From: Thermoplasmata archaeon | GTDB taxonomy: Archaea; Thermoplasmatota; DAOVMN01 | DNA: 34,648 nt | Direction of reading: 5' to 3' | NCBI GenBank assembly: GCA_030630685.1 | Contig: DAOVMN010000001.1 | Span: 1 to 34,648 of the forward strand | Part shown: positions 9,633 to 13,434 of the stretch, piece by piece | Layout of the letters: the number at the start of each line of letters is the position of its first letter | Numbering within the stretch: the stretch's first letter is position 1 | Made by a program: the position numbers and the translations under genes | Notes under the pieces: generated by a model | Told to the model about the DNA's origin: nothing | What the model saw: only the letters and a program-made list of their open reading frames with translations | The model's database searches: none

Positions 9633-9947
9633 CTAGCGCTTCTTGTCTACTGCGGCCTTGAAGGCGGCTGCGGGTCTGAATCCCGGAACCTTCTTCTTCG
9701 GGATCGTAATCTTCTGTTTGGTCTGTGGGTTGATCCCCATGCGCCTCTTTCTTTGCTTCACCACGAAGCTTCCGAAACCGGCAATTCGGACGTTCTTGCC
9801 CTTGGCCACGGTAGCGGAGATGACAGTGAATGCTGCATCTACTGCTGCCTTTGCCTGCCTCTTCGAAAGTGAGGGTGTGGCTATCTCTGCAACCTCAGTA
9901 ATGAGTTCAGTTTTGTTCAGGTCTTTTTTTGCCTTTCTTGGAGCCAT
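9633..9947 (-). CDS. Bacterial-type HU/IHF family DNA-binding protein with a short basic N-terminal extension
   Basis: NKTELITEVA...RIAGFGSFVVKQRKRRMGINPQTKQKITIPKKKVPGFRPAAAFKAAV matches the HU fold signature (GFG..., RNPQT-like arm). GGAGGT lies 7 nt upstream of ATG 9947. Confidence 0.85.
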   Translation of the reverse strand: MAPRKAKKDLNKTELITEVAEIATPSLSKRQAKAAVDAAFTVISATVAKGKNVRIAGFGSFVVKQRKRRMGINPQTKQKITIPKKKVPGFRPAAAFKAAVDKKR

Positions 9948-10209
9948 TTTTGTTACCTCCAGGCACATAAAACCGCTTAGGGTTTAATAGTTTTGTGGTT
10001 AATCATGGCAAATCCCTTATCTGGAAAGGACATTCCCCTTATTATCGAGCTTTTATCCAGTAAATTCAATATGTTTTTTTTGAAATTAAAAAAAACACAT
10101 CTTAAATAAAGGATATTCTTAAGAATCCGATCAGAGAATCCCCAATATCATTGAGAATCTTGGAAATATCAATCATAATTCTTTCTAGTGTATTCTCTCA
10201 GAAGGGATT

Positions 10210-11058: not shown

Positions 11059-12054
11059 TTGAAGGCGATGCTACTGGAATCCCATGCACCCATGGAGGAA
11101 CATCCGCTCAGACTTACCGACATCCCGAAACCAGTACCTAAAGTTGGAGAGGTACTCCTGCGGGTGAGCACTTGTGGGATCTGTCACACGGATCTGCACA
11201 TCATCGAAGGGGAGGTCAAGCCCCCATCCCTGCCTTTGGTGGTTGGGCATCAGGTGGTGGGAGAGGTGGAAAAAATTGGAGAAGGGGTGGAGAATCGAAA
11301 GCTCGGGGAAAGGGTGGGAGTGCCCTGGCTCTATTCGACGTGTGGAAGGTGCAGCTTCTGCCAGCGTGGTGAGGAGAATCTTTGCGAGGACATCCGTTTT
11401 ACCGGCTGCCACGAAAATGGAGGACTAACGGAGTACATGGTAGCACCGGCGGAGTTCGTTTATCCCATACCCAGGATATTCAGCGATATTCAGGCTGCCC
11501 CTCTGCTCTGTGCCGGGATCATTGGTTACCGGGCCCTTCGAATATCAGAGATAAAGAAGGGAGAGGTATTGGGGCTCTTTGGTTTTGGTGCCTCTGCTCA
11601 CATAGCGATCCAGGTGGCTATGCACTGGGATACCGAGGTATTCGTGTTCACACGTTCCGAGAATCACCGGGATCTGGCACGGGAATTGGGTGCCGCCTGG
11701 GTCGGGGGTGCCGAGGATCCCCCTCCTAAGGAGCTTGACCGGGCCATCATCTTTGCCCCTGCGGGATACCTGATACCTCTTGCCCTGAAGAATATCAGGA
11801 AAGGCGGCACCCTGGCCCTTGCCGGAATCTACATGGATAGGGTCCCGGAGATGCCCTACGATCTGATCTACGGGGAGAGGAAGCTTGTGAGCGTGGCTAA
11901 CAGTACAAGGGAGGATGCGATTGGATTACTTGAAGCTGCGGCTGAGATACCGATACTGACCGAGGTGGAGGCATTCCGTCTCGAGGAGGCAAACGAGGCC
12001 TATCTCAGGCTCAAGAGAAGCGAGATAAAGGGTGCCGGGGTGATTGTTCTTTAG
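11059..12054 (+). CDS. Zinc-dependent alcohol dehydrogenase (MDR family)
   Basis: GICHTDLH and GHQVVGEV zinc-ligand motifs, a structural-zinc Cys cluster CGRCSFCQRGEENLC, and Rossmann LFGFGASAH. The start is TTG 11059 or ATG 11068. Confidence 0.85.
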   Translation: MKAMLLESHAPMEEHPLRLTDIPKPVPKVGEVLLRVSTCGICHTDLHIIEGEVKPPSLPLVVGHQVVGEVEKIGEGVENRKLGERVGVPWLYSTCGRCSFCQRGEENLCEDIRFTGCHENGGLTEYMVAPAEFVYPIPRIFSDIQAAPLLCAGIIGYRALRISEIKKGEVLGLFGFGASAHIAIQVAMHWDTEVFVFTRSENHRDLARELGAAWVGGAEDPPPKELDRAIIFAPAGYLIPLALKNIRKGGTLALAGIYMDRVPEMPYDLIYGERKLVSVANSTREDAIGLLEAAAEIPILTEVEAFRLEEANEAYLRLKRSEIKGAGVIVL

Positions 12055-12056
12055 GT

Positions 12057-12082
12057 AAAAAAAGGAGCCGCTGGGGGGAATC
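12057..12082. repeat. 26-nt duplicate of the tRNA-Thr 3' end plus flank (att-like direct repeat; partner at 12216-12241)
   Basis: aaaaaaaggagccgctggggggaatc occurs identically at 12057-12082 and 12216-12241. The second copy is part of the intact tRNA-Thr. Confidence 0.8.
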
Positions 12083-12105
12083 AGAACGCATCTTTTTGGG
12101 AAAAA

Positions 12106-12156
12106 CCTTGACGAGTGCTTCGCACTCATCCGGCTCTCAGAATTTCATTCTTCATG
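12106..12156 (-). repeat. Single two-hairpin unit of the hairpin-array family, inverted orientation
   Basis: The reverse complement reads catgaa-GAAT-gaa-ATTC-tgagagccggatga-GTGC-gaa-GCAC-tcgtcaagg. This is the same linker grammar as arrays B, C and D. Confidence 0.65.
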
Positions 12157-12224
12157 CCTGCACCAAAAACCTGTGCGACCTCGCTCCACTCTGTTCCGCT
12201 CGGTCCCACTTTATTAAAAAAAGG

Positions 12225-12296
12225 AGCCGCTGGGGGGAATCGAACCCCCGACCTACGCCTTACCAAGGCGTCGCTATACCGCTAAGCCACAGCGGC
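12225..12296 (-). tRNA. tRNA-Thr (anticodon GGU)
   Basis: Hand-folded. Acceptor GCCGCTG/CAGCGGC, anticodon arm ACGCC-TTGGTAA-GGCGT, T arm GGGGG-TTCGATT-CCCCC, discriminator T. A T7 run follows on the minus strand. Confidence 0.9.
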
Positions 12297-12367
12297 TTTT
12301 GGCAGTTACCGGAAGCCCGCAAACTATGGATTGTATAAAATTGTTTTGATGGACGGAATCGAGACAT

Positions 12368-12755
12368 GGGACTATGTTATAATTTAGCGAATAAGGCACC
12401 ACCCCTTCCTTATGTGGGATAGTTTATCTCCATAAATAGAATCCTAATCAGGCGGGTCGGAACCACACGGGGGGGGGCACCGGGGAGGCATGAGGAAGCG
12501 AAGTTCCGATTGCCGGCTAAACACGAAGTGTTCGTCAAGGAAGTACTCGGCAAGGCGTGCAAACTTATTTGCGCACCGATTGAATCCGCAGGATTCGATA
12601 AGGCATTCGGAAAGCAGTTCCGAATTCCGATTGAGGGCAAAGCCCTCGATAAGGCGGTGAGAAAAAATTCAGCCAGATTGGCATATAGAATCTTGTGAGT
12701 TTCTTATTCACTATGTCACTGACCTCCTTAATCACTGACTTACAACATAGTACCC
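12368..12755. mobile_element. MITE-like non-coding element: ~29-30-nt inverted terminal repeats bracketing hairpin array C
   Basis: gggactatgttataatttagcgaataagg (12368-12396) matches the reverse complement of 12726-12755 (gggtactatgttgtaagtcagtgattaagg). No ORF lies inside. Confidence 0.45.
12489..12654 (+). repeat. Tandem short-hairpin array C (6 hairpins)
   Basis: GGAA..TTCC (12494-12507), AACAC-gaa-GTGTT (12520-12532), GCAAA-ctta-TTTGC (12559-12572), GAATCC-gca-GGATTC (12582-12596), TTCGGAA-agcag-TTCCGAA (12606-12624), GAGGGC-aaa-GCCCTC (12633-12647). It shares 30+ nt blocks with array B. Confidence 0.75.
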
Positions 12756-12824: not shown

Positions 12825-13061
12825 ATGAGAGCTAAAAATTTAATGGATAGAATCACCATCAATCCTGAGGTAATGATTGGTAAACCAACCATCAGAGGGA
12901 TGAGAATCACGGTAGAGCAGATTCTGAAGGCTCTTGCCAATGGTGTAACAACCAAGGAGCTGCTCGATGATTACCCGGAACTCGAACCGGAAGATATTCA
13001 AGCGGCCCTTCTTTATGCGACCGAGTTGGTAAGTGAAGAACAGGTTTTTGCGGTAGCGTAG
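12825..13061 (+). CDS. DUF433-type small protein (putative antitoxin)
   Basis: ITINPEVMIGKPTIRGMRITVEQIL is the DUF433 signature. It is paired with a DUF5615/PIN-like gene 10 nt downstream. Confidence 0.7.
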   Translation: MRAKNLMDRITINPEVMIGKPTIRGMRITVEQILKALANGVTTKELLDDYPELEPEDIQAALLYATELVSEEQVFAVA

Positions 13062-13071
13062 GTGTCTCAGA

Positions 13072-13434
13072 ATGACTCATGGTAAGCCAAGATTTTTAGT
13101 CGATGTTTGTGTTGGCAGAAAAGTAGAAGATTGGCTTGTGAAAAACGGGTATGATATTAGAACTGTAAGGGAGATCAATCCTCGAATGAATGATAGGGAA
13201 GTATTGAAAATAGCAGTGATTGAGGGCAGAATGGTTGTAACAATGGATAAAGATTTTGGAGAACTTGTCTACAATTCTGGAATGGCCCACTCCGGAGTGT
13301 TACTTTTGAGGATCGAAGATGCCAATGCTAATGAAAAAGTAAAAACCATAGAAAAGATACTAACAGAGTATCAAGATATGTTGTCAAACAATTTTTGCAT
13401 ATTTCAAAACGAGAAACTTAGAATAAGAAAATAA
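13072..13434 (+). CDS. DUF5615 / Mut7-C PIN-like protein (putative toxin)
   Basis: FLVDVCVGRKV...VVTMDKDFGEL has the acidic-residue pattern of PIN-like nucleases. It has the conserved pairing with DUF433. Confidence 0.65.
   Translation: MTHGKPRFLVDVCVGRKVEDWLVKNGYDIRTVREINPRMNDREVLKIAVIEGRMVVTMDKDFGELVYNSGMAHSGVLLLRIEDANANEKVKTIEKILTEYQDMLSNNFCIFQNEKLRIRK

Follow-up and report, generated by a model that had tools for sequence, protein, structure and literature searches.

Behind the tRNA-Thr(GGT) gene of a Thermoplasmata archaeon (assembly GCA_030630685.1, contig DAOVMN010000001.1; the stretch of 34,648 nt that was analysed is called the window), a 27-nt direct repeat of the 3' part of that gene brackets a short piece of gene-less DNA. 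Judging from its sequence, this insert is one member of a recurring, lineage-specific family of gene-less modules that trail tRNA genes. Each unit of the family has a single novel junction, which lies inside the T-loop and of which the left half is derived from the module, while the module sequence itself is common to different tRNA loci and to two genera. Following these results, it seems, with a confidence that falls somewhat short of even, that recombination at the tRNA T-loop put the insert in place as a small, non-autonomous module.

The initial annotation had reported a 26-nt direct duplication of the tRNA-Thr 3' end around a 133-nt insert with one inverted unit of a hairpin family, and both observations hold at all of the positions given for the repeat (the unit lies on the minus strand). 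The window contains exactly two copies of the 26-mer, AAAAAAAGGAGCCGCTGGGGGGAATC, which share the plus strand and are located at 12057-12082 and 12216-12241; a genome-wide exact search found the 26-mer nowhere else in the 2.67 Mb of this genome (519 contigs, 81% complete, with the window as its contig C314), and a chance origin of the pair is ruled out by dinucleotide-preserving shuffles of the window, 0/100 of which gave a match. The repeat is in fact 27 nt long, owing to an additional T at 12056 and 12215, beyond which it is weakly prolonged as a gapped GAAC. Read on the tRNA strand it is GATTCCCCCCAGCGGCTCC-TTTTTTT-A, which starts at the fourth T-loop base and continues via the 3' strand of the acceptor stem and the discriminator to CC and the oligo-T tract, i.e. 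until 10 nt past the discriminator. One copy is part of the intact tRNA gene, where the 26-mer comprises 17 nt of tRNA and 9 nt of trailer (19 + 7 when the encoded CC is counted as tRNA), and the other is separated by 1 nt from the stop codon (TAG, 12052-12054) of adh, a gene for a Zn-dependent alcohol dehydrogenase. Only the 27 nt are repeated here; the DNA between the 26-mers (133 nt, 12083-12215; 132 nt between the 27-mers) is single-copy at this locus, and the insertion including one repeat copy amounts to 159 nt. The suggested search for the 26-mer as an attachment site (attP) elsewhere yielded nothing beyond the two genomic copies, exact-match scans of public metagenome contigs (with the 26-mer) and of viral contigs (with a 19-mer) having returned zero matches.

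The bracketed 133 nt contain neither an open reading frame (ORF) nor the remnant of a gene, including that of an integrase, but only hairpins and a unit resembling repetitive extragenic palindromes (REP-like unit). The ends of the insert (AATAAAGTGG and GATGCGTTCT) are not inverted repeats of each other, and the tRNA was the sole match of an Rfam scan, even with a permissive threshold. No part of the insert is unique DNA, as was found by BLAST against the genome: its positions 1-129 align with the module behind tRNA-Lys(ctt) on C448 (67%, E 1e-8), 47-116 with C78 (83%) and 7-68 with the trailer of tRNA-Pro(tgg), parts of it also match the trailers of tRNA-Asp/Leu, Pro and Met, and positions 57-110 gave dozens of matches to REP-like units.

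An artefact in the assembly of this metagenome-assembled genome (MAG) is ruled out by an independent scaffold from the ENA (ERZ23498665:scaffold_2366), which has the identical structure, with both 26-mers 159 nt apart; it is 99.94% identical over 6363 nt, and none of the four single-nucleotide differences falls within 12057-12241. In a third assembly, of a 99.3%-identical strain (L121; GCA_023132975.1, contig JAGLXJ010000332), the contig stops inside the first 27-mer, just short of the base that separates a filled from an empty site, and this end could be a branch of the assembly graph at the repeat. The sole other genome of the same class and family in the genome collection (G001) belongs to a different genus. 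At its locus, adh is followed by an unrelated spacer of 57 nt and the orthologous tRNA-Thr, of which the upstream A/T box is conserved, and no second copy of the tRNA-Thr 3' end is present, either at the locus or elsewhere in that genome. By this comparison, the 159 extra bases do not appear to belong to the conserved adh/tRNA-Thr locus. Among the adh homologues in the genome and metagenome collections, a tRNA-Thr lies downstream in G001 only.

Similar structures are found behind other tRNA genes. When all 30 detected tRNAs, with 30-nt flanks, were searched against the genome for nearby direct partial 3' copies, these were found behind at least seven tRNA genes, namely Lys(ttt), Lys(ctt), Leu(gag), Leu(tag), Met, Arg(gcg) and Thr (Table 1). 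Outside tRNA-Thr, a conserved hairpin (TTTTGTAAAAAGGCTCC) precedes the copies at all but one of these loci (C158, C106, C451, C448, C78 and C82), and the 1.86-kb bracket behind Arg(gcg) likewise terminates in a hairpin (H2) and a partial tRNA copy; orphan H2 hairpins with a copied tRNA tail are located at contig ends (C403:28 and C334:6983). The common layout begins right after the complete tRNA 3' end and consists of a first hairpin (H1), a spacer, H2 (GTTTTCCCTGGAGGC-TTTTGTAAAAA-GGCTCC(G)), a T-loop-like sequence and the remainder of the cognate tRNA 3' end, taking up 82-90 nt without REP-like passengers. At tRNA-Thr, the order on the tRNA strand is tRNA, CC-T7-A, H1, AGGTTTTTGGTGCAGGC, the REP-like unit, TTTTTCCCAAAAAGATGCG, TTCT and the second 27-mer, where TTTTTCCCAAAAAGATGCG corresponds, by inspection, to TTTTGTAAAAAGGCTCCG of the other modules. 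A bracket that differs in kind, and forms the exception to the layout, was observed behind Gly(ccc) (C295:3006-4026), where a 47-nt copy, starting at the anticodon loop, follows 940 nt later and the bracketed 0.94 kb encodes an AbrB-type antitoxin and a PIN toxin but no integrase.

The sister genus contains the same modules. In G001, H2, the T-loop-like sequence and the cognate remainder follow Gly(tcc), Leu(gag), the initiator tRNA-Met (iMet; two units), Arg(gcg) and Glu(ttc), which together with Arg(cct) brings the number of its tRNA genes with this layout to six. A search of G001 with the left arm of H2 gave 23 matches, compared to 3 for the reversed control, 7 of which adjoin tRNA genes. 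Within arrays, the copy next to the tRNA is intact and decay is most advanced in the copy farthest away. At the junction, no conservation is seen among the left ends of the modules.

H2 (CCCTGGAGGC-TTTTGTAAAAA-GGCTCCG), which adjoins the junction, is identical over ~34 nt at four to five loci. Of 401 genomes of the phylum that were searched with the H2 core, this genome contains nine copies and G001 one, which is located 172 nt downstream of tRNA-Arg(cct) and precedes a partial copy of the tail of that tRNA, whereas the core was not found in the 399 others. At one G001 locus, H2 differs at just two of 20 nt, against an identity of only 70% for adh between the genera, and such near-identity at different tRNA loci and in two genera means that transfer between loci is needed. 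When 15 H2 copies from the two genera are aligned, 95% of the pairs are standard and 6/10 pairs show compensatory changes (e.g. GGAG/CTCC vs GCAG/CTGC), a degree of pairing that was reached by 0/500 shuffles, with slid controls at 41-73%. As a palindrome of the type T4-N3-A4, H2 may serve as an oligo-T terminator in both directions. H1-type hairpins occur behind tRNA-Lys, Leu, Met, Arg and Pro, trailing both complete and partial tRNA 3' ends. Their general structure is stem-GA-NN(N)-GNA-N'N'(N')-GA-stem, in which the G.A motifs are in tandem and the inner stem covaries, and they gave zero matches in Rfam.

The nature of the junction follows from aligning each tRNA with its own partial copy, in both genomes. 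What lies 5' of each partial copy is the right arm of H2 and not a T-stem, and the identity with the tRNA starts in or just after the T-loop, the register of which is retained at the join with small slips. The crossover is at this canonical sublocation at all H2-type modules: junctions at other tRNAs read GGCTCC(G)TTCG(A/G)AT, while at tRNA-Thr TTCT is followed by the GATTCC of the copy, 1 nt out of register compared to TTC-GATTCC in the tRNA. The T-loop-like core at the module end is TTCG(A/G)AT(A/C)CC, of which the ATACC variant is found at unrelated tRNAs in both genera, and a variant reading TTCGGATACC or CGAATACC is shared by Met, Arg(gcg) and the distal Glu unit. In three cases, Leu(gag) and Leu(tag) in this genome and Glu(ttc) in G001, the tRNA has a TTCAAAT loop but its partial copy reads TTCGAAT, from which it follows that the left part of the copied loop is derived from the module. 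Differences from the parent tRNAs fall at recurrent positions of the copied T-loops, A57 to G in these three TTCAAAT tRNAs and A58 to G in about six copies (TTCGGAT), and the loci with such differences are C106, C78, C448, C451, C82 and C403 in this genome and L160 and L138 in G001; they could be either a core variant borne by the module or, on a more speculative view, a relic of copying from modified RNA. The duplicated 3' part ranges from 18 to >55 nt, and the stretch that lies beyond the end of the tRNA measures 1-2 nt for Lys(ttt) and Leu(gag), 10 nt for Thr, 13 nt for Arg(gcg) and >50 nt for Lys(ctt) and for Glu and iMet in G001. This variable length fits blocks of identity that are carried along rather than a fixed staggered cut, and in combination with a join that is registered by homology it makes a transposase-style target duplication unlikely.

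Table 1. Features of the adh/tRNA-Thr locus in the window and positions of the related units behind other tRNA genes of the same genome
Feature	Position	Strand	Basis or remark
adh, Zn-dependent alcohol dehydrogenase	11059..12054	+	Pfam ADH_N (7e-31), ADH_zinc_N; syntenic with G001 adh, 70% nt identity
Distal 27-nt repeat copy (attR-like): partial tRNA-Thr from T-loop position 57 to end, plus CC-T7-A	12056..12082	-	
Module-derived T-loop-like junction nucleotides, TTCT (tRNA strand)	12083..12086	-	Junction alignment
Degenerate H2 right arm, TTTTTCCCAAAAAGATGCG (tRNA strand)	12087..12105	-	Position and T5-N3-A5 palindrome, by inspection
REP-like double-hairpin unit, ATGAAG..CCGGATGAGTGCGAAGCACTCGTCAAGG, passenger in H2 loop	12106..12155	-	Motif scan, BLAST
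H2 left arm or 'leader', AGGTTTTTGGTGCAGGC, counterpart of GTTTTCCCTGGAGGC	12156..12172	-	BLAST alignment to C78 and C448 modules
H1 hairpin, GTGGGACC-GAGCGGAACAGAGTGGAGCGA-GGTCGCAC, GA-motif type	12173..12209	-	Stem paired in minus-strand fold
Proximal 27-nt repeat copy: 3' part of intact tRNA-Thr and CC-T7-A trailer (oligo-T terminator)	12215..12241	-	
Intact tRNA-Thr(GGT)	12225..12296	-	Infernal (71.8 bits); ARAGORN, 12223-12296, adds encoded CC; 97% identical to G001 orthologue
Conserved region upstream of tRNA, A/T box TTTATACAAT (tRNA strand), probable archaeal promoter	12297..12350	-	Conserved in G001, 83% over tRNA and upstream region
Lys(ttt)	C158:11784-11963		22-nt copy, 105 nt away
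Leu(gag)	C106:7341-7656		23-nt copy, 111 nt away
Met	C451:1473-1775		Two successive units, ~110 nt each
Lys(ctt)	C448:5-393		Copy of at least 52 nt, 284 nt away
Leu(tag)	C78:11792-12090		Partial 3' copy
Arg(gcg)	C82:4472-6422		25-nt copy, 1.86 kb away

According to the reading that we favour, the two 27-mers would mark the junctions of a gene-less insertion of 159 nt within the 3' part of tRNA-Thr(GGT), formed by recombination between the T-loop of the tRNA and the T-loop-like core that the module carries next to H2, i.e. the T-loop type of tRNA integration as it is known for tyrosine integrases, with the recombinase being supplied in trans. Because the incoming unit would bring its own tRNA 3' remainder, the tRNA gene would stay intact and the old 3' end would be displaced downstream against the adh stop. 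The initial annotation had likewise regarded the repeat as the footprint of integration at a tRNA gene, a view which is upheld as far as the anatomy of the direct repeat, from T-loop to gene end, and the absence of the duplication in the sister genus are concerned. Several points weigh against integration, however. No recombinase, circular form, empty-site allele or donor copy has been seen, and the >12 different tRNA 3' ends carried by one module family are difficult to account for. With two genomes in the class only, loss from G001 is inseparable from gain here. At tRNA-Thr itself the junction is out of register, as mentioned, and H2 is degenerate, while the perfect identity of the repeats (27/27) may reflect gene conversion or selection and not recency. 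Furthermore, whole units including trailers are tandemly duplicated at Glu and iMet in G001, for which local unequal exchange is equally explanatory, and unequal exchange together with gene conversion can account for the multi-unit arrays.

A recombinase acting in trans may be sought among the tyrosine recombinases of both genomes. This genome has one, XerA-like (170 bits, i.e. below the equivalog cut-off of 220 bits), which together with a preceding ORF of 187 aa is located directly behind tRNA-Leu(caa) in A/T-rich DNA (C411:3406-5038). Of about eight XerA-like genes in G001, three of equal size are located 0.5-1 kb downstream of Gly(gcc), Leu(cag) and Ser(gga) (L161, L162 and L164); the tRNA-linked genes encode 316-321 aa, and the spacing to the tRNA is 0.5-1 kb in this genome too. 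From their sequence context, these genes look like parts of integrated elements, the far ends of which are off contig in C411 and G001 alike, and no relatives of the integrase were found in the viral contigs. As the recombinase of the modules, the XerA-like integrases are candidates only. Their location behind tRNA genes speaks for the module being placed by recombination; the elements that bear them have no H1 beside their tRNA, however, which together with far ends lying beyond the contigs is a further point against it.

The insert could instead be the product of a local, non-mobile duplication, in which slippage or unequal exchange between the T-loop and a T-loop-like sequence in the trailer (a decayed older copy) was followed by gene conversion. 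This is in line with the T-loop register kept at the junctions, with the units of Glu and iMet in G001 and of Met and Lys(ctt) in this genome, which include trailer and whole module as in a tandem duplication, with the stronger decay of distal copies, and with the way in which partial copies track lineage-specific differences between the tRNAs, such as CCCGG vs CCCAG at Arg(gcg). A simple tandem duplication, however, gives two complete copies of a segment, which are present at some other tRNAs but not at tRNA-Thr, where there is one module only and the second 27-mer abuts adh; this single unit with its displaced tail is what integration predicts and simple tandem duplication does not. In addition, the inter-locus transfer required by the near-identical H2 sequences falls outside a purely local process, and we consider this explanation unlikely.

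Equally unlikely is that the insert is what remains of a larger, gene-carrying element (a virus, plasmid or island) at tRNA-Thr, internally deleted until the two ends and their attachment (att) repeats were left, which corresponds to the heavily deleted island of the initial annotation. Partial tRNA copies are well-known scars of integration in archaea (PMC9897764, PMC3293823), larger brackets do exist in this genome (the 0.94-kb AbrB/PIN islet at Gly(ccc) and the 1.86 kb at Arg(gcg)), and integrase genes are located behind other tRNAs. Independent deletions, on the other hand, would not yield the same layout of H1 and H2, within the same narrow range of length, at many tRNAs in two genera. 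The insert also lacks any remnant of an ORF, and the missing H1 of the integrase-bearing elements counts against this origin as well. The island is, in short, not well supported.

An insertion of the transposase type, with a long target-site duplication made by a casposase or other Cas1-like enzyme that reads the T-loop, has a precedent in Aciduliprofundum boonei, which belongs to the same phylum. The casposase of A. boonei recognises the T-loop sequence TCAAATC of tRNA-Pro and duplicates 14-15 bp of the 3' end of the gene, ~8 bp after the T-loop motif (PMC6614799). The modules share with that system the T-loop as a landmark and the duplicated tRNA 3' end, but casposons are characterised by terminal inverted repeats, a casposase of the Cas1 type and a duplication of fixed length (PMC6614799), whereas the modules have no inverted repeats, a variable duplication length and a junction inside the T-loop. 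Cas1 (PF01867) gave zero matches in this genome, at 81% completeness, the module left ends lack conservation at the junction, and the T-loop half that derives from the module speaks for a homology-guided junction and not for a fixed cut. An origin of this kind is therefore very improbable, and membership of the casposons or of other transposons with target-site duplications is rejected on the grounds of the ends, the duplication length and the lack of Cas1. A miniature inverted-repeat transposable element (MITE) is ruled out as well, since the ends are not inverted repeats and a short target duplication of fixed length is not observed.

The hairpin family to which the REP-like unit belongs, consisting of a covarying stem between the conserved flanks CCGRWTGA and TCGWYAAGG, occurs in many dispersed copies, 125 strict ones with covarying positions being found in the genome by motif scan. 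In the window, C78 and C448, REP-like units are located exactly between the left arm (..GGC) and the loop TTTT of H2, beginning with ATGA(A/G)G and ending with AA(G/C)G(C). The tRNA duplication is present without a REP-like unit in the modules at Lys(ttt), Leu(gag) and Met, and among 73 testable REP-like arrays a tRNA-type flanking repeat was found for the array of the window only, while the distribution of their longest flank repeats resembles that of 365 random controls. By its position, the unit appears to be a passenger that entered the loop of H2 later and was not the cause of the duplication. That the hairpin elements themselves insert and duplicate 27 nt of their target, as the initial annotation considered, is scarcely credible, even though the unit sits within the bracket and a TnpA gene adjoins REP-like arrays elsewhere, since it is contradicted by the REP-less modules and the flank test on the 73 arrays; moreover, HUH/Y1 transposition is not known to duplicate its target. 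This TnpA gene, which is intact, encodes a Y1 transposase of the IS200/IS605 family (C36:32-481, minus strand; 143 bits, cut-off 55), next to arrays at C36:1321-1424 and 2046-2073. It is a plausible candidate for the mobiliser of the REP-like family, though not of the tRNA duplication. The abundant covarying extragenic hairpins in arrays, with TnpA nearby on C36, resemble REPs and bacterial interspersed mosaic elements (BIMEs) with REP-associated tyrosine transposases (RAYTs) or IS200-type Y1 transposases, but this likeness is limited to the 50-nt passenger and does not extend to the tRNA duplication, and the family is here archaeal, with a candidate mobiliser only.

Some observations concern the surroundings and the host. 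A bacterial origin, to which the HU gene at 9633-9968 might point, is rejected: Pus10, a tRNA pseudouridine synthase of the archaeal type (509 bits), is encoded in the window, the tRNA genes of the genome are without encoded CCA and terminate in oligo-T, and a tRNA-Met with the A1:U72 pair typical of archaeal initiators is present. The MAG contains no small-subunit (SSU) rRNA. Upstream of tRNA-Thr lie a hairpin array (12480-12660) and a DUF433/DUF5615 (PIN-like) toxin-antitoxin pair (12825-13434), while homology to G001 stops ~55 nt upstream of the tRNA, with other genes beyond. Outside the family, adh has its closest homologues in Anaerolineae/Chloroflexota (~60% amino-acid identity), and sequence comparison suggests that adh was acquired by an old horizontal transfer which is common to the sister genus.

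When compared to known systems, the modules share features with archaeal integration at the T-loop sublocation of tRNA genes (by SSV-, pNOB8-, pTN3- and XerA-like integrases), namely the direct repeat from the T-loop to beyond the 3' end, the intact tRNA on one side with a displaced partial copy on the other, the empty-looking site in a relative, and tandem accretion with the older copies distal. In contrast to those elements, the modules have no integrase or other gene in the bracket, measure only ~85-160 bp, and join one conserved end (H2 with the T-loop-like core) to at least 12 tRNA 3' ends. Cis-mobilisable elements of the CIME type are non-autonomous, bounded by att sites and dependent on an integrase in trans, but they measure kilobases and derive from a single known element at a single site; the modules have similar att-type bounds and would also need an integrase in trans, but are far smaller, occur at many tRNAs and have no identified parent element. 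A literature search found no description of gene-less units of 85-160 bp with a conserved hairpin and T-loop-like end at many tRNAs.

Going further than placement at a single tRNA, the modules could represent a novel gene-less mobile unit of a deep-branching archaeal class, which targets tRNA T-loops generally and restores or re-creates the 3' end each time, thereby building time-ordered arrays of modules and displaced tails; we regard this as possible, if on balance doubtful. Positions 57 and 58 of tRNAs are commonly modified in archaea (m1I57 and m1A58). In a more speculative variant, the partial copies would be retro-copies of modified pre-tRNA, the changes from A57 and A58 to G being at modifiable positions.

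Partial tRNA copies are usually taken as the scars of viruses or plasmids, whereas here the same small gene-less module, with a conserved hairpin beside a T-loop junction, recurs behind at least 13 tRNA genes in the sole two genera known of an archaeal class. Should the modules be mobile, they would rank as the smallest integrative units known to target tRNA genes, they would provide a natural substrate for finding a recombinase that recognises the universal T-loop, and their arrays would be a record of insertion history. If they are not mobile, tRNA trailers can apparently grow by duplication anchored at the T-loop, with concerted evolution of the copies, which would be relevant to the annotation of tRNA genes and to models of split and intron-bearing archaeal tRNAs.

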